Shown here one piece after another: positions 1,327 through 7,319 of a stretch of 10,047 bases of DNA. The DNA lies in IMG/VR virus record IMGVR_UViG_2706794662_000010; one strand, given 5' to 3'. The notes beneath the pieces were generated by a model that was not told the DNA's origin, did not search any database, and saw only the letters and a program-made list of their open reading frames with translations. This DNA comes from a virus. Lineage: Duplodnaviria; Heunggongvirae; Uroviricota; Caudoviricetes. Position 1 is the stretch's first letter. Every line of letters starts with the position of its first letter. A program made the translations under genes and the position numbers.

Positions 1327-1850
1327 TACAAAGAAATGCGCTGGAATGTGCAGGATGTGAGCTGTTTTTCGAAGACAGAATAAGCGGTAAGACAAGGGAG
1401 CGTCCCGGACTTAAACGCGCATTAAAGCGACTCCGGCCAGGGGATACCCTGCTGGTCTGGAAACTGGATCGCCTTGGACGCAGTATGCAGCACCTTGTCC
1501 TTTTAACAGAAGAACTCCGGCAACGCGGCGTTAACTTCCGCAGCATTACGGACAATATTGATACATCCACTCCCATGGGACGTTTCTTTTTCCATATAAT
1601 GGGCGCGCTGGCGGAAATGGAGCGGGAACTCATTATTGAACGTACACGCGCGGGTCTTGCTGCTGCCCGTGCTCAGGGGCGTCATGGCGGCAGACCTCAG
1701 AAACTGACAGAGAAAGAGCGGGAGCAAATCGCCCGTTTGCTGGCTAATGGCGAGTCCCGTAAACAAATCGCACTGATATTTGATATTGGCCTTTCCACCC
1801 TTTATCGTTATTTTCCTGCCTCACCAGCTCCGTCACCAAAAGTACCGTGA
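1327..1850 (+). CDS. Serine DNA invertase, Gin/Pin/Cin/Hin family (visible C-terminal ~173 codons; start masked, estimated near 1278)
   Basis: Frame beginning at 1329 reads QRNALECAGCELFFEDRISGKTRERPGLKRALKRLRPGDTLLVWKLDRLGRSMQHLVLLTEELRQRGVNFRSITDNIDTSTPMGRFFFHIMGALAEMERELIIERTRAGLAAARAQGRHGGRPQKLTEKEREQIARLLANGESRKQIALIFDIGLSTLYRYF..., stop 1848-1850. Shows the resolvase/invertase core (DRLGRS, MGRFFFH, GALAEMEREL) and a C-terminal HTH; near-colinear with Gin/Pin as recalled. Confidence 0.9.
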
Positions 1851-1935
1851 CGCTTTTTTGAATTTCCGCAAAACACATATTTTTCAGCGGTCGCTATTCT
1901 GACTCTGTTTAATTCAGAAACAGGCAGAAAAGACG

Positions 1936-3990
1936 ATGTCAGACTCCAAGTGGAAAATGCTCTCCGCCATGCCCGGAGAGTTTTCAGTCAAGGTTGCCGG
2001 TGGCACGGTGGCATTTATTGAAAGCCCTTTCCGCCCTTCGGGTAATAAAGGGGGGATCACCTTCGCAGACTGCGTGATCCGCTTCAGCACGAAAGAGCCA
2101 TTATGGGTAATGCCGGTATCCGGTAATCCCAGTGCAGAAATCACCAGTTCAGGCGTGACTGGCATCATTCCAATCACATCTGACGTGGCCGGAACGCTCA
2201 CGCCCTCCGACTGGAATGCACCGGATAACGCCGGGCCTTCCGGTAGCACGAATGGCAGCAGTTCAGAGCCGGAATATTACTTTGTTGTCATTCTCGCGGG
2301 TCAGTCAAATGGCATGGCCTACGGCGAGGGGCTGCCGTTACCGGATTCGTTTGACCGCCCGGACCCACGCATTAAGCAACTGGCACGCCGCAGTACGGTA
2401 ACGCCCAACGGTACGTCGTGTACATACAACGACATCATTCCGGCAGACCACTGCCTGCATGATGTTCAGGATATGAGCGGGATAAACCACCCGAAAGCTG
2501 ATCTGGCAAAAGGCCAGTACGGGACTGTCGGTCAGGGGTTGCATATTGCCAAAAAACTGCTTCCCTATATCCCACAGAATGCCGGGATACTTCTGGTGCC
2601 CTGTTGTCGTGGCGGGTCAGCATTCACCACTGGAGCCGACGGCTCATTCAGTGAGGCCAGCGGTGCTTCCGCTGATTCTTCACGCTGGGGGGCCGGTAAA
2701 CCTCTGTATCAGGACCTGGTAAGCCGCACCAAAGTCGCGCTGGCGAAAAACCCGAAAAACAAACTTCTGGCTGTGGTCTGGATGCAGGGAGAGGCAGACC
2801 TTGCCTCAGGAAGCCAGCAGCATAATAGTTTATTCACGGCCATGGTTCAGCAGTTCAGAACTGACCTGGCTCCGCTTGCTGCGCAGTGCGTGAGTGGAAA
2901 TGCCACCACGGTGCCGTGGATTTGCGGTGATACCACGTATTACTGGAAAAACGCTGGCACCGATAAATATGAGGCAGTATACGGTGGCTACAAAGGCAAG
3001 GAAGCACAGAAAATTTTCTTTGTACCGTTCCTGACGGATGAGAATGGACAGAGCACGCCAACGAATGCTCCGGCGGAAGACCCGGATATTGTGGCTGTCG
3101 GGTATTACGGTGCAGCATCCCGAACCCAGGGCAGTTTTGTTTCGACACAGCGTGACAGCCATTTCAGCTCATGGGCACGCAGGGGCGTCATTTCAGACCG
3201 TCTGGCCTCAGCTATTATGCTCCATGCAGGGCGCACGGCTGAACTGATGCGCGGGCAGACCGTGACACCACCGGATGAGAAGCCGTCACCTGATACACCA
3301 TCAAAACCGTCCACGCCACCCGCAGACACCACGACGATGAGTACGCTATTTGCTTACCGGGCATCTGAGTCTGAAGGACGGTTGACACCACAGGGTTGGG
3401 CTGCCGGAGGTGGCAAGGCTCAAATCGTGGATGATGCCGGAGCCAGCGGGGGTAAGGCAATGAAACTGACCAAGGAAACAGGAAGAGCCCCCTGGTACCT
3501 TGAGCATGATGCTGGTAATGGTGCGGACCTGCTGGGTAAAGGTGGTCTTGTCAGTTGTCGTTTTAAACTCGATGGCGCGCTTACGGCTAATCAGTACGCA
3601 CTGGCGCTGTACTGGCCGGTTTCTGCCCTGCCGCAAGGGGTTACTCTGGAAGGAAATGCCGGTCATAACCTGCTGGCATCGTTCTACGTACAGAGCGATG
3701 CCACAGACCTTAACGTGATGTATCACAAAGGAAACACGGCGCAGAACACGAAGCTGGGGTCATTCGGCGCATTTAATAACGAATGGCATACGCTGGGCTT
3801 CCGTTTTGCCGGTAACAACAGTATTGAGGTGACGCCGGTCATTGATGGTAAGGACGGGACACCATTCATGCTGTCGCAGTCTCCGGTCGGCACGTTTACG
3901 GCAGACAAGTTGCGCGTGACCGATATCACTAAAAATGCGACTTACCCGGTACTGATTGACAGTATCGTGGTGGAAGTGAATAACGCGTAA
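1936..3990 (+). CDS. SASA/SGNH-family carbohydrate O-acetylesterase with Pro/Thr linker and C-terminal lectin-like domain (prophage NanS-p-like sialate O-acetylesterase candidate)
   Basis: 684-aa uninterrupted ORF. Contains the GQSN motif (codons 2299-2310, candidate catalytic Ser at 2305-2307) and a downstream WMQGEAD block typical of the SASA/DUF303 esterase family. A TPPDEKPSPDTPSKPSTPPADTTT linker lies at about 3262-3335, followed by a ~215-aa beta-rich domain. No signal peptide. Weak RBS; ATG at 1957 is an alternative start. Confidence 0.65.
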   Translation: MSDSKWKMLSAMPGEFSVKVAGGTVAFIESPFRPSGNKGGITFADCVIRFSTKEPLWVMPVSGNPSAEITSSGVTGIIPITSDVAGTLTPSDWNAPDNAGPSGSTNGSSSEPEYYFVVILAGQSNGMAYGEGLPLPDSFDRPDPRIKQLARRSTVTPNGTSCTYNDIIPADHCLHDVQDMSGINHPKADLAKGQYGTVGQGLHIAKKLLPYIPQNAGILLVPCCRGGSAFTTGADGSFSEASGASADSSRWGAGKPLYQDLVSRTKVALAKNPKNKLLAVVWMQGEADLASGSQQHNSLFTAMVQQFRTDLAPLAAQCVSGNATTVPWICGDTTYYWKNAGTDKYEAVYGGYKGKEAQKIFFVPFLTDENGQSTPTNAPAEDPDIVAVGYYGAASRTQGSFVSTQRDSHFSSWARRGVISDRLASAIMLHAGRTAELMRGQTVTPPDEKPSPDTPSKPSTPPADTTTMSTLFAYRASESEGRLTPQGWAAGGGKAQIVDDAGASGGKAMKLTKETGRAPWYLEHDAGNGADLLGKGGLVSCRFKLDGALTANQYALALYWPVSALPQGVTLEGNAGHNLLASFYVQSDATDLNVMYHKGNTAQNTKLGSFGAFNNEWHTLGFRFAGNNSIEVTPVIDGKDGTPFMLSQSPVGTFTADKLRVTDITKNATYPVLIDSIVVEVNNA

Positions 3991-4005
3991 GCAGGATAAA
4001 AAAAT

Positions 4006-4038
4006 GCCGCCGGTAAGGGAAAACAAGAAACCGGCGGC
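4006..4038. terminator. Hairpin GCCGCCGGT-(15 nt)-ACCGGCGGC flanked by A-tracts; possible terminator, orientation ambiguous
   Basis: 9-bp GC stem 16 nt after the esterase stop. The plus strand has A-runs on both sides, so the minus strand has U-tracts; it would be more efficient for minus-strand transcripts. Confidence 0.35.
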
Positions 4039-4134
4039 AAAAAGATCGTTATATCCAAAGCAAAAAATGCAGTGCACCTTTTTACCTAACAGATATTACC
4101 GGTGTCAACACCATGTCAATAATTGGGAGGGATA

Positions 4135-4317
4135 ATGACATTTTTACAGCTTATTTTATTGTATTTCTGCACGGCAGTATGTGCGTTATATCTGGTGAGT
4201 GGTGGTTATAAGGCCATCAGAAATTATGTTCGCCGCAAAATTGAGGACGCAGCAGCTGAAAAACTCAGTAAAACAGCGCAGGTAACTCCGCTCCCAAAAG
4301 ACCCGACCCAGCCCTGA
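4135..4317 (+). CDS. Small membrane protein (one predicted N-terminal TM helix, charged C-terminal tail), unknown function
   Basis: ATG at 4135 preceded by GGGAGG (4125-4130). MTFLQLILLYFCTAVCALYLVSGGYKAIRNYVRRK... has a hydrophobic N-terminus followed by a basic stretch. The track ORF from TTG 4123 has no RBS. Confidence 0.5.
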   Translation: MTFLQLILLYFCTAVCALYLVSGGYKAIRNYVRRKIEDAAAEKLSKTAQVTPLPKDPTQP

Positions 4318-4352
4318 TTGCAGGGCTTTATTCCCGCATAAGGAGGATATAC

Positions 4353-4607
4353 ATGCCAGAAATTAAAGGCACCGTCACTGAAGACCTGGTAAAACAGGCA
4401 CTGTATTCCGGTGAAGTAAATAAGTTGCTGAAAGCGCAGGTCCGCAAGGATTTTGAGGCACAAATCGACACTTACGTTGATGAAGTGCTGGCAAAACTTA
4501 TTGGGCCAGCAGTTGCGGCCAGTGATGCTGATAATGAGCCGAAAACCGACGCGCAGCCAGAGCAACCAGACCCGGCTCAGCCCGGAACTGACAGTACCAT
4601 GATGTAA
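4353..4607 (+). CDS. Small acidic protein (84 aa), unknown function
   Basis: Strong RBS AGGAGG (4341-4346) 6 nt before the ATG. About 16 acidic versus 8 basic residues, with a Pro/Gln/Asp-rich C-terminus. Followed by a hairpin at 4613-4640. Confidence 0.6.
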   Translation: MPEIKGTVTEDLVKQALYSGEVNKLLKAQVRKDFEAQIDTYVDEVLAKLIGPAVAASDADNEPKTDAQPEQPDPAQPGTDSTMM

Positions 4608-4612
4608 CAATA

Positions 4613-4640
4613 CAAACCGGTGGTGTCCTCTGCCGGTTTG
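4613..4640. terminator. Hairpin CAAACCGG-(12 nt)-CCGGTTTG downstream of the small acidic ORF; weak candidate terminator
   Basis: 8-bp stem 6 nt after the stop codon at 4605-4607; no clear U-tract. Confidence 0.3.
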
Positions 4641-4774
4641 ACACTAATGAAAACATCTTTGCCGCTATCCAGCCATATGTAATCGCTGGATAGTATTTCG
4701 TATTCAGAAATATAGCTGCTTATGGAGCAGTCAATCCTGCTTCCCCATCCGGGCAGGCAAATGAACCGGTATCA

Positions 4775-5068
4775 TTAGTCCGATTCACGCTTTTGTAGAA
4801 TCGTTCCCAGAATGCTATACAGCTCATTAGCCTGTTGCTCCATCATTGAGACGGAGGCTATACGGTGCAAAGTGATTTCAGGAGGTGGCACACCTCCATC
4901 TTCTTGCTGTGGAGGAAAAACATAAGATTTAATAAAAAAGTTGAAGCATATGAACTCTCCCGCACTCGAACTGTATTTGCAGGCATCTGAATAATCGGAA
5001 AAATAATCATTATAGATTTCCGCATTTTCAATCATTTTTCGATTTCTCGTCGTTACATGATTGTCCAT
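4775..5068 (-). CDS. Hypothetical protein (97 aa), divergently transcribed from com-mom
   Basis: Minus-strand ORF with AAGAGG RBS 5 nt upstream of the ATG (complement of 5074-5079). No recognisable family. Upstream is a 250-bp AT-rich intergenic region shared with the com promoter region. Confidence 0.5.
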   Translation of the reverse strand: MDNHVTTRNRKMIENAEIYNDYFSDYSDACKYSSSAGEFICFNFFIKSYVFPPQQEDGGVPPPEITLHRIASVSMMEQQANELYSILGTILQKRESD

Positions 5069-5256
5069 AGCAGCCTCTTACGCTGGCAATTAACCAATTG
5101 ACTTCTATAAATTAGTTGATTTGTTTGCTTTGCGGTATTCAAATGTACAATCATTCAGCACTTATGCGTTACAGCACCGTTTAAAATTAGTGATCAAACT
5201 CATAAATTTTCGCTAATGACATTTCGTGTTATTTGTTGTATCAATTAAATAAATCA

Positions 5257-5281
5257 AATCGATCGTTTTTGTCGATCGATT
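5257..5281. promoter_or_regulatory. Palindrome AATCGATCG-TTTTTGT-CGATCGATT carrying two GATC (Dam) sites upstream of com; candidate methylation-sensitive operator
   Basis: Perfect 9-bp inverted repeat with 7-nt spacer; GATC at 5261-5264 and 5274-5277, each inside a CGATCG hexamer; 44 bp upstream of the com start. Mu mom transcription is known to be controlled through clustered Dam sites upstream of com-mom. Confidence 0.4.
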
Positions 5282-5324
5282 GAGTGATAAAGATATCAAC
5301 AACAAAGCAGGAGGTTATGCGGCC

Positions 5325-5525
5325 ATGTATCGAAACATACGGTGCCGACATTGTAACAAGCTACTGGCACGAGCCAGCTTCAGTTATCTGGAAGTTAAAT
5401 GTCCGCGCTGTAAAACCCTCAATCAAATCACATCTCAGAGCGCCACAGAGCACCCCACATACACAAGGAAATCCTGTCGTGGGGAACAGAAAGCAAGTTA
5501 CATCCCGTATCATCAGCACGCCTGA
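5325..5525 (+). CDS. com: Com-like zinc-finger translational activator of mom
   Basis: ATG 5325 with AGGAGG (5309-5314) upstream. [35 protein letters not shown]... matches the Mu Com pattern IRCxxCNKLL...CPRCK (CxxC...CxxC finger) as recalled. Small (66 aa) and overlaps the next ORF in another frame, as in Mu. Confidence 0.8.
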
Positions 5526-6216
5526 ACTTATTCACTATAACGACAATATCGTCGGTTATGGCTCCCGTGAGTTACGGGTTGAGACAATAAGTTGCTGGCT
5601 GGCCCGGCTGGTCGTCGTCAATAAACATTACAGCCATCGTTTCGTAAATAATTCCTACCTTCATCTGGGCATATTTTCAGAACGGGAGCTGGTTGGCGTA
5701 ATGCAATGGGGTTATGCCCTTAATCCAAACAATGGTGCACGCGTCGTAACTGGCACGCAGAACCGCGAATATATGGAGCTTAACCGGTTATGGCTGCATG
5801 ACTGTATGCCGAGAAACTCCGAATCAAGGGCAATCAGTTACGCGCTCAAACTAATCAGACAACTTTATCCGCAGGTGCAGTGGGTTCAGTCGTTTGCAGA
5901 TGAGCGTTGTGGCTGTCTTGGTGTCGTGTACCAGGCAAGCAATTTTGATTATGTAGGCAGTCATGAAACAACATTCTATGAACTTGATGGCGAGTGGTAT
6001 CACGAGATTTGCAAGAATGCAATCAAACGAGGAGGACAGCGAGGTGAACATCTGCGGACTAATATCGACAGAGCCAGTGTTCATAAATTCCGTCAGTTTC
6101 GTTACATCCGGTTTCTGGACAAGAGAGCCAGAAAACGCCTTAACACAAAGCTATTCAAAGTCCAGCCTTACCCAAAACCACAAACAGTTAAAACTGGTTT
6201 GAAAGAGAGTGAATGA
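5479..6216 (+). CDS. mom: Mom-like DNA-modification protein (anti-restriction adenine modification); start codon uncertain
   Basis: Long ORF in the +1 frame relative to com, overlapping the com 3' end. Candidate GTG start at 5479 with AAGGA 9 nt upstream, giving about 245 aa. Assignment rests on the com coupling and the Mu-like gene order invertase-com-mom; the body was not matched to Mom from memory. Confidence 0.6.
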
Positions 6217-6252
6217 ACGCTTAAAAACTCATTCTAAAACTCAAAAGAAAAG

Positions 6253-6292
6253 CGCCGATTTAGTATCAAATAAGTTGCGTATCGGCGTTTTT
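6253..6292 (+). terminator. Candidate terminator after mom: CGCCGAT-(21 nt)-ATCGGCG followed by TTTTT
   Basis: 7-bp inverted repeat 6253-6259 / 6281-6287 followed by T5 (6288-6292); the loop is unusually long. Confidence 0.35.
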
Positions 6293-6295
6293 CAG

Positions 6296-6327
6296 CGGTA
6301 TCAAATGAAATGCAAATCGGTATCAAA
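6296..6327. repeat. Two exact direct copies of CGGTATCAAA 22 bp apart, plus a third GTATCAAA at 6263-6270, at the module boundary
   Basis: Exact 10-mers at 6296-6305 and 6318-6327, between the mom stop and the point where H homology ends. Possible transposase or recombinase binding iterons. Confidence 0.5.
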
Positions 6328-7046
6328 AAAATCGCCGCGCTATACGCTGCCAGACCCAGACGGGCATTTTCCCGGTCATCCCATGCGCCCTGAAGGTTGG
6401 CCCGGAAAGAGGAGGTTTTACCGCGGCGCTGGCTCCGACTCTGGTACCACTGCCATTTTTTATCCGCCTCATCAAATGCCTTCTGCGCACTGGCGAGCAT
6501 ATCCGCTGAGGATTCCGGACGACCGATATCCAGAATGGCATCCCACATCGATTTGAATGCCTTCCCTGTTTTATCCGCCCAGGTCTCCAGTGTTCCCATG
6601 TTTTCTTTCAGGCGACGGGTCTGCTCATCAAAGCCTTTCGTGGCGATATCGTTCGCCGCCTGCAATGCCCCGGCCTCGTCTCCGGAACGCTGCAGCTGTG
6701 CAACATACGCAATCTGCTCTGCCGTCACGTTACGGAACTGGCGCGCCATCGCCATCAGTCCCGACGTCGGGTCAGTGGTCAGCTTCCCGAAGGCTTCAGC
6801 GACTTTATCCACCTCCACACCGGATGCAGACGCAAAACGCGCGACACTCTGGTTGATGGCATCAAACTGTTCACCACCACGCACACCGGCATTCACCAGG
6901 GCTGCCAGTGACTCTCTCGCCTGGTTAAACGTCAGCCCTGCTGCCTGCCCGGCTCTTGAGAGAGTCAGCATACGATCGGCAGTCAGTCCGGACTGATTAC
7001 CGGAAAGAACCAGGGTTTTATTAAACGCTGAAAGCGTGGAATCTCC

Positions 7047-7319
7047 NNNNNNNNNNNNNNNNNNNNNNNNNNNNNNNNNNNNNNNNNNNNNNNNNNNNNN
7101 NNNNNNNNNNNNNNNNNNNNNNNNNNNNNNNNNNNNNNNNNNNNNNNNNNNNNNNNNNNNNNNNNNNNNNNNNNNNNNNNNNNNNNNNNNNNNNNNNNNN
7201 NNNNNNNNNNNNNNNNNNNNNNNNNNNNNNNNNNNNNNNNNNNNNNNNNNNNNNNNNNNNNNNNNNNNNNNNNNNNNNNNNNNNNNNNNNNNNNNNNNNN
7301 NNNNNNNNNNNNNNNNNNN
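7047..7319. other. Run of 273 N (masked or unsequenced bases)
   Basis: Directly visible; hides the T stop and the H start. Confidence 1.

Follow-up and report, generated by a model that had tools for sequence, protein, structure and literature searches.

A predicted NanS-p esterase module with a lineage-specific N-terminal domain and a putative late promoter between gin and com of Mu-like Escherichia coli prophages

What lies between the invertase gene gin and the com-mom region in a Mu-like prophage, when in phage Mu itself only 94 bp separate the end of gin from com? In the 10,047-nucleotide virus record IMGVR_UViG_2706794662_000010 (the window, by which we mean the whole stretch analysed), positions 1851-5324 fall between these genes, and because the Mu gap is only 94 bp, they represent an insertion of 3.4 kb relative to Mu. 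A preliminary description of the sequence placed four genes here, encoding a 684-amino acid (aa) esterase-lectin protein, a 61-aa membrane protein, an 84-aa acidic protein and a divergent 97-aa orphan. It held three of the four to be without a family, and regarded the block as the best candidate in the window for an uncharacterised accessory system, in a typical hotspot position, possibly for defence or anti-defence. The insertion relative to Mu stands, and all four open reading frames (ORFs) are present in the ORF listing of the window. Two of the supposed orphans belong to the Pfam families DUF1378 and DUF826, the standard companions of nanS-p, and most of the block is a known NanS-p module rather than an uncharacterised system. 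We consider it very probable that this module has become fixed between gin and com, with a new N-terminal domain on the esterase and a late-type promoter of its own, and that it is followed by a small variable slot.

Results

A predicted sialate O-acetylesterase of the NanS-p type

The module and its parts are as follows.
1855-1900, plus strand: putative late promoter for the esterase operon, Mu-type and C-dependent
1936-3990, plus strand: nanS-p, predicted sialate 9-O-acetylesterase of phage type, 684 aa (Pfam SASA and DUF6645; PHROG 143, E = 1.7e-296)
1936-2220, plus strand: lineage-specific N-terminal domain of the esterase, approximately aa 1-95, followed by a Ser/Gly/Pro-rich linker
2263-3219, plus strand: NanS-like SGNH/SASA catalytic domain, aa 110-428 (PDB 3pt5 match)
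3340-3984, plus strand: C-terminal lectin-like jelly-roll domain (DUF6645), aa 469-683 (PDB 6yp6 match)
4005-4039: 10-bp GC-rich hairpin between nanS-p and the DUF1378 gene (-20 kcal/mol)
4135-4317, plus strand: DUF1378 gene, 60 aa, ATG behind a GGGAGGG ribosome-binding site (RBS) (Pfam PF07125, PHROG 494)
4353-4607, plus strand: DUF826 gene, 84 aa, acidic, isoelectric point (pI) 4.2 (Pfam PF05696, PHROG 311)

The 684-aa protein is predicted to be a NanS-p type sialate O-acetylesterase in a variant particular to the Mu lineage, and its matches to PDB entries 3pt5 and 6yp6 bear out the earlier view of it as an esterase-lectin protein. Residues 110-428 align end to end with NanS (YjhS; PDB 3pt5, E = 1.8e-117), and the SGNH blocks are kept: GQSN with Ser124, QGE at 284-286 and DSH with His409. 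Residues 469-683 match the NanS-p C-terminal domain (PDB 6yp6, E = 7e-98; Pfam DUF6645, 226 bits). The aromatic residues proposed to bind sugar in vb_24B_21, Y510, Y515, Y540 and F611 (PMC10462455), are all conserved in our alignment to that protein, as Y554, Y559, Y584 and F654. Sialic acids are de-O-acetylated by NanS-p enzymes (PMC10462455 and references therein). Over aa 96-684 the window protein is 92% identical to the NanS-p of an ordinary lambdoid prophage, where the gene stands with the Q antiterminator and tRNA genes to one side of it and the holin gene to the other. NanS-p esterases have been investigated for their part in the fitness and virulence of Shiga-toxin (Stx) E. coli, and genes of the present kind that are labelled "DUF6645 domain-containing" would be better named sialate O-acetylesterases.

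The trio appears fixed in a lineage of Mu-like prophages

Is the module cargo that comes and goes? Four other Mu-like prophages, at unrelated chromosomal sites, have gin, the esterase, DUF1378, DUF826, a variable piece, com and mom in this order. The esterase, DUF1378 and DUF826 genes (the trio) are syntenic in all of the at least 45 loci examined, and in 34 loci from IMG/VR and several from genomes the order holds wherever the contig was long enough. A census of 5,426 complete E. coli genomes gave the following counts.
com-mom of the lineage: 285 places, 233 genomes
Mu-type N-terminus of the esterase, window type: 39 places, 28 genomes
Mu-type N-terminus, O157 type: 246 places, 205 genomes
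Both N-terminus types summed: 285 places, 233 genomes

Judged by these equal counts, for which another cause is hard to see, the trio appears to accompany every copy of com-mom. The trio thus appears to be fixed in the lineage that shares this com-mom sequence, rather than being variable cargo. Conserved synteny among relatives, which the preliminary description had named as an argument against its own view, was found for three of the four genes, and the variable hotspot that it proposed shrinks to a slot of 575 bp behind them.

Fixation of the trio does not mean that its sequence is static. Within the lineage com and mom are 94-100% identical, but the esterase body is 52-100% identical to that of the window (loci L003, L006, L013 and L037-L048 compared with 2251-3987), and the window body shows 92-93% identity to a lambdoid allele against 68% to the O157 Mu-type allele. 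Since the window body is nearer to a lambdoid allele while com and mom are nearly identical, allele exchange has probably been repeated: the esterase body has evidently been swapped by recombination with lambdoid alleles, with the N-terminal domain and the promoter remaining on the Mu-like backbone. Reciprocal Mu-like/lambdoid chimeras occur in one genome (L112 and L055, IMG/VR contigs 2617270962_000005 and _000007; also L099), with the crossover inside nanS-p. One chimera has the Mu-type N-terminus and then the lambdoid order DUF1378-DUF826-holin-lysozyme; the other has DUF1737 and then the Mu-type order DUF1378-DUF826-com-mom. The shared esterase gene, as these contigs indicate, is a recombination substrate between Mu-like and lambdoid prophages of one chromosome.

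A lineage-specific domain in the place of DUF1737

The part of the esterase that does not travel with the body is its first 95 or so residues, which occupy the place of DUF1737 in lambdoid NanS-p. PF08410 (DUF1737) is present in every lambdoid relative found by the homologue search and absent from the 22 Mu-type clusters, and Pfam gives no PF08410 hit in the window esterase. Alignment of the N-terminal domain with DUF1737 by hhalign gave a probability of 0.3%. No Pfam hit was obtained for the domain at E ≤ 10, and nothing credible came from PHROGs or PDB (best E 0.018 and 9.5, respectively). An anchor shared with a tail fibre or baseplate protein was considered and rejected, there being no similarity to either. 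A short-pattern scan of limited sensitivity, run over representative genomes from 185,579 species, confirmed no relative. A first homologue search with the domain returned fragments only, and the top 120 hits of a search with the full-length esterase were window-type Mu variants only.

The domain is found in 34 IMG/VR loci, in gin/com-mom context wherever the contig is long enough, the chimeras excepted. The two types of the domain, window and O157, are approximately 59% identical and share many invariant residues. A single-sequence AlphaFold model was unusable, with a predicted local distance difference test score (pLDDT) of 35. In phi24B the NanS-p is gp84, whose DUF1737 decorates the capsid as a hexamer on the central hexons; the full-length esterase is on fresh virions and is cleaved off later (bioRxiv 10.64898/2026.04.10.717836). 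Among the IMG/VR loci collected with DUF1378 as seed, exchange of the N-terminal domain coincides exactly with the change of phage type, as would suit an adaptor specific to the particle. Relative to the lambdoid module, the lineage-specific N-terminal domain is new.

A late-promoter-like element upstream of nanS-p

How would the trio be expressed in its new surroundings? Five bases past the gin stop codon begins an 18-bp imperfect dyad, TTTTTGAATTTCCGCAAA (1855-1872), followed by a 22-nt spacer and a -10-like hexamer, TATTCT (1895-1900). In the complete prophage of E. coli M18, the pattern TTNNTGNNNTNNCGCAAA matches three times over 40.3 kb, where 0.07 matches would be expected, an enrichment that is optimistic because the pattern was defined post hoc on the same sequences. 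All three matches are intergenic and on the coding strand, upstream of the lysozyme, protease-I and nanS-p genes, and each is followed exactly 22 nt on by a -10-like hexamer (TTACGC, TTATGC and TATTCT); two intragenic copies of the 9-mer core in the same prophage lack both the left half-site and the hexamer. The region upstream of the O157-type gene keeps motif and spacing (TTACTGAATTAACGCAAA-N22-TATGAT) with a different spacer sequence. All Mu-type loci have the element, and no lambdoid locus does.

Placing the hexamer at -12 to -7 puts the 18-bp dyad at -52 to -35 and its centre at -43.5. Late promoters of Mu have a C-site centred at -43.5 and -10 hexamers but no -35 hexamers (PMC2582627), and the geometry of the element matches these published C sites. 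The Mu promoters Plys and PI contain a related core, TCCCGCA(C/A), and a Mor/C family gene is present in the complete prophages of the lineage. From the spacing and conservation of the element, and from its match in geometry to the C-dependent late promoters of Mu, the trio is predicted to be a late transcription unit of the Mu-like phage. In lambdoid phages the nanS-p trio is under Q control. The late-promoter-like element upstream of nanS-p is a new point.

The esterase might alternatively be a purely lysogenic-conversion (moron) enzyme that serves the sialic acid nutrition of the host, with an N-terminal domain that has nothing to do with the virion. Published work presents NanS-p as a means to grow on Neu5,9Ac2 and the sialic acids of mucin (PMC10462455), many carriers of the lineage are gut pathogens, and no similarity of the N-terminal domain to structural proteins was detected. 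Yet the gene stands behind the late-promoter-like element and not behind a recognisable constitutive promoter, and no signal peptide is seen on reading the N-terminus by eye, so release would need lysis. The phi24B equivalent is on the capsid (bioRxiv 10.64898/2026.04.10.717836), and exact exchange of the N-terminal domain with phage type is what a particle-specific adaptor would produce. We regard a purely lysogenic role as possible but the less favoured account of the enzyme.

A variable slot holds the only uncharacterised gene

Behind the trio come the following features.
4613-4640: hairpin directly after the DUF826 gene, left edge of the slot (-16.7 kcal/mol, z -3.3)
4641-5215: variable slot between the trio and the mom control region, 575 bp, GC content 0.40
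4775-5068, minus strand: orphan gene, 97 aa, acidic (RefSeq form 86 aa, 4775-5035)
5216-5324, plus strand: conserved mom regulatory region with the com RBS
5325-5525, plus strand: com (Pfam Zn_ribbon_Com; RefSeq annotation)
5479-6216, plus strand: mom (Pfam Mom; RefSeq annotation)

When five Mu-like variants were aligned, homology broke at about 4640 and resumed at 5216, approximately 109 bp upstream of com. Across 38 loci the slot holds three unrelated sequence classes (lengths run from the DUF826 stop to the com start).
O157 type: 21 loci, 460-930 bp, mosaic and often frameshifted
Window type: 15 loci, 717-725 bp
M18 type: 2 loci in one genome, encoding a 175-aa zinc-ribbon membrane protein

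DNA of the window-type slot occurs in 18 of the 5,426 genomes. The M18-type ORF (L004, 5184-5711, minus strand) encodes a 175-aa protein whose N-terminal part is a zinc ribbon, with a single hydrophobic helix and, at the C-terminus, a domain whose only matches are PHROGs of unknown function. An ORF of 154-167 aa in the slots of L013 and L037 (PHROG 26524) is frameshifted in many O157 genomes. Profile searches gave no known function for the slot occupants. Only the 575-bp slot behaves as a variable cargo site, and only its occupant is truly uncharacterised. A shift in GC content across the block, raised in the preliminary description, is present: the values are 0.55 for the esterase, 0.45 for DUF1378, 0.50 for DUF826, 0.40 for the orphan slot and 0.34 for 5216-5324 upstream of com.

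The orphan on the minus strand, described from the outset as a divergent 97-aa ORF, is there as described, and RefSeq has it in the shorter form listed above. It has no Pfam, PHROG, PADLOC, NCBIfam or PDB match, and searching 5.8 billion clustered sequences and 1.84 billion representatives found relatives in E. coli and Shigella only. Could it be a chance ORF in AT-rich spacer DNA? It lacks homologues outside E. coli and Shigella and a confident fold (an AlphaFold model built with 7 close relatives has a pLDDT of 50 and is unusable), and a generic scan for sigma-70 promoters and terminators found no more sites than in shuffled sequence. Its start is ambiguous as well: the first 11 codons show only non-synonymous changes, and because they bear no sign of constraint, the true start may be Met12. 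Against chance, a variant of 79% identity keeps the frame open over 97-100 codons, the ratio of non-synonymous to synonymous substitution rates (dN/dS) is 0.40 with the changes clustered at the termini, an AAGAGG RBS lies 5 nt before the 97-aa ATG, and the ORF is always found in the slot and in one orientation. A chance ORF is therefore unlikely, and the orphan is probably a real gene. Opposite orientation, low GC content and replaceability, all of which it displays, are typical of morons expressed from the prophage.

Two constant partners of the esterase

The DUF1378 protein was previously described as a 61-aa membrane protein; its presence and hydrophobic helix are upheld, but its length is 60 aa. 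An alternative ORF called mechanically starts at a TTG at 4123 and encodes 64 aa. The match to PF07125 scores 109.1 bits against a gathering threshold of 25. The protein is basic (pI 9.3) with one N-terminal hydrophobic helix (Kyte-Doolittle maximum 2.27, residues 3-21), and its homologues occur in 309 phage records, mainly of Stx phages. DUF826, which scores 58.7 bits with PF05696 (threshold 25), is as acidic as had been stated, and its alignment has a conserved N-terminal half of approximately 50 aa and a Pro/Glu-rich tail. Neither protein has a match in PDB. A tblastn search of the phage collection with DUF826 returned only two records, both with an inserted Mu-like phage; the shortfall is probably due to low sensitivity for a short, low-complexity protein, and local searches with several DUF826 variants found it in all lambdoid loci. 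Of the RBSs that the four genes were said to have, those of DUF1378, DUF826 and the 97-aa start are good and that of the esterase is weak.

The two hairpins of the block, at 4005-4039 and 4613-4640, are stable, in line with the earlier claim. The first has folding z-scores of -4.4 (plus strand) and -4.5 (minus strand), and lies inside a stretch approximately 92% identical in DNA sequence to lambdoid prophages. Read along the plus strand, it has A7 before it and A5 behind it; because a U-run is present only on the minus strand, it resembles an intrinsic terminator for minus-strand transcription only.

In Stx phages the gene order is stxAB, SASA esterase, DUF1378, DUF826, holin and lysozyme, and DUF1378 and DUF826 have been mentioned between nanS-p and S (PMC10462455). 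To survey this linkage, IMG/VR was searched with DUF1378 as seed and the neighbours were typed in the best 80 loci, a sample consisting mostly of E. coli phages close to the query. Of the 70 loci whose upstream DNA is long enough, 68 have the esterase directly upstream of DUF1378 and the other two have esterase fragments, and DUF826 is downstream in 71 of 71. Only two contexts exist among these best 80 loci, DUF1737-esterase-DUF1378-DUF826-holin-lysozyme and Mu-type N-terminus-esterase-DUF1378-DUF826-com-mom. This strict linkage of three genes over two phage types is, on the loci surveyed, a new point.

Do the small proteins serve the esterase or the holin? They could be accessories of the lambdoid lysis cassette, holin modulators for instance, that were dragged along with the esterase gene: in lambdoid phages they are directly upstream of the holin, and DUF1378 is a small membrane protein. 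However, in all Mu-like loci both genes are intact and in frame although the lysis genes are 20 kb away, they have been kept while diverging down to 57-74% identity, and they follow the esterase with hardly an exception. Their integrity so far from the lysis genes is suggestive of service to the esterase rather than to the holin, and we think passengers from a lysis cassette improbable.

The weakest alternative, that the block is a defence or anti-defence island beside the anti-restriction gene mom, can draw on its position at the phage end, on the variable, AT-rich 575-bp slot with unannotated small genes in opposite orientation, and on an orphan without homologues outside the locus, but it is very improbable, since the approximately 2.7 kb from the esterase start to the DUF826 stop, the trio itself, are invariant in the lineage, the main enzyme acts on host glycans, PADLOC models gave nothing credible for the four proteins and two alternative slot occupants, and the idea could cover the slot occupant only. 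A PADLOC match of DUF826 to PbeC (E = 0.0076, 12.9 bits) was regarded as noise.

The mom control region and the prophage context

The right edge of the block needs to be redrawn. The last 109 bp (5216-5324) had been counted as cargo with the rest of 1851-5324, but they are conserved in 233 genomes and align across all Mu-like variants, and on this conservation they are assigned to com-mom. The region resembles the GATC cluster upstream of Mu com. Approximately 45 bp upstream of the com start codon lies a perfect 9-bp inverted repeat, AATCGATCG-N7-CGATCGATT (5257-5281), with a GATC site at 5261 and another at 5274; a third one, at 5192, is just upstream, in the slot. The palindrome is nearer to com than the GATC cluster is in Mu. 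It could be a Dam/OxyR site, an activator site of the mom promoter of this lineage, or both.

The window is the right end of a Mu-like prophage, and two runs of N interrupt it.
1485-1850: gin, left neighbour of the four-ORF block
1059-1326: run of 268 N
7047-7319: run of 273 N

Its gene order is a tail-fibre assembly gene, a G-segment remnant (part N), gin, the four ORFs, com and mom, and positions 1400-6300 are 100% identical to 13 complete E. coli genomes. The first run of N hides part of the G-segment and the N-terminus of gin, so gin is visible only as a 121-aa C-terminal fragment; the second hides part of a lambdoid tail-assembly region. The right end of the Mu-like element is at about 6345 (...CGCCGCGCTATAC), where homology among independent insertions stops. 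There it abuts a fragment of a lambdoid tape-measure gene on the minus strand (window 6217-7040), beyond which are lambdoid tail genes, also on the minus strand (G/T region, Big2-domain tube protein, U and Z). Because of this arrangement, the Mu-like phage appears to have transposed into a tail gene of a lambdoid prophage. The junction at about 6345 is shared by none of the 5,426 complete genomes; the Mu end alone adjoins many different host genes across genomes.

Two genomic copies deserve mention. E. coli M18 (locus L014, NZ_CP010219.1 3403700-3444000) has a complete copy of the Mu-like prophage, of approximately 38.5 kb and without gin, inside the type I restriction endonuclease gene hsdR, which it splits into two pseudogene halves. 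In E. coli TOE17 (locus L001, NZ_CP069093.1) a copy 100% identical to the window sits between citD and citE. It has neither head genes nor most tail genes, and its late region runs from small late genes after the lysis cassette directly to baseplate genes; the esterase region is present in three copies in the TOE17 genome.

Discussion

What might a Mu-like phage gain from a NanS-p module? In the account that we favour, the late activator would turn on the trio during lytic growth, and the esterase would be made alongside the virion proteins. It would then either be tethered to the Mu-type particle via its N-terminal domain or simply be released at lysis. By stripping 9-O-acetyl groups from the sialic acids of mucus, it may help the phage, or surviving lysogens, in the gut. 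DUF1378, as a single-pass membrane protein, and DUF826, as an acidic soluble protein, would be its constant partners, and the slot between the hairpin and the mom control region would carry interchangeable small genes, here the minus-strand ORFan.

Several points weigh against this account, besides the optimistic enrichment figure of the promoter pattern. Expression, activity and virion presence of the Mu-like module are predictions from sequence. No other ORF of the complete prophage, structural proteins included, is similar to the N-terminal domain, and because structure prediction of the domain failed, its putative virion-binding role has positional analogy with DUF1737 as its sole basis. 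The putative promoter is followed by a weak esterase RBS. The constancy of DUF1378 and DUF826 could reflect linkage and not function, and the surveys cover mainly E. coli and Shigella sequences and close relatives.

A bolder version, which we offer tentatively, takes NanS-p to be a plug-in virion enzyme with an anchor swapped for each particle. The domain of approximately 95 aa would be an adaptor not recognised before, tethering it to the head or tail of a Mu-type myovirus, DUF1378 and DUF826 would be obligate helpers in assembly, processing or release, the unit would be the fifth late transcription unit of the C-dependent regulon, and the slot a small hotspot for genes expressed by the lysogen, the ORFan among them.

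The literature and Pfam already have names for most of the block, and the small variable slot with its ORFan is a further new point. No paper linking nanS-p with Mu-like prophages was found in the literature searched. The module matters in that an enzyme body and its two unexplained partners have been transferred together to a transposable phage of unrelated type. Because nothing but the promoter and the N-terminal domain changed in the move, this is a natural experiment on the roles of the parts: on which domain anchors to which particle, and on whether DUF1378 and DUF826 serve the esterase or lysis. The shared gene body is also a route for genome rearrangement, by recombination between Mu-like and lambdoid prophages in one chromosome.

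Comparison with known systems

The closest known systems are the NanS-p proteins of Stx and other lambdoid phages (933W L0105, phi24B vb_24B_21/gp84; PDB 6yp6). They share with the window protein the catalytic and lectin domains, up to 92% identity over aa 96-684, Ser/Pro-rich interdomain linkers, and DUF1378 and DUF826 downstream. Unlike them, the window version has an unrelated domain of approximately 95 aa instead of the capsid-binding DUF1737. It also lies between gin and com in a transposable Mu-like myovirus prophage rather than between Q/stx and the holin gene, and behind a Mu-type late-promoter-like element rather than under pR'/Q control. Chromosomal NanS (YjhS; PDB 3pt5) has a homologous catalytic domain with the same variants of the SGNH blocks. 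Unlike the window esterase, it is a single-domain protein of the sialic acid regulon, without the N-terminal adaptor, the lectin domain or DUF1378 and DUF826.

The right end of phage Mu has the same flanking genes in the same order and a GATC-rich region upstream of com, and its Mom protein is 78% identical to that of the window. Where Mu has 94 bp between gin and com, the lineage has 3.4 kb, four genes and apparently an extra late promoter; we know of no promoter in Mu at the matching position. Like Mu's Plys, PI, PP and Pmom, which are C-dependent promoters, the putative promoter of the window combines a -10 hexamer with a dyad, imperfect and centred at -43.5, and has no -35 hexamer. The sequence of its dyad differs from that of Mu. 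The lysozyme and protease-I promoters of this prophage have the element too.

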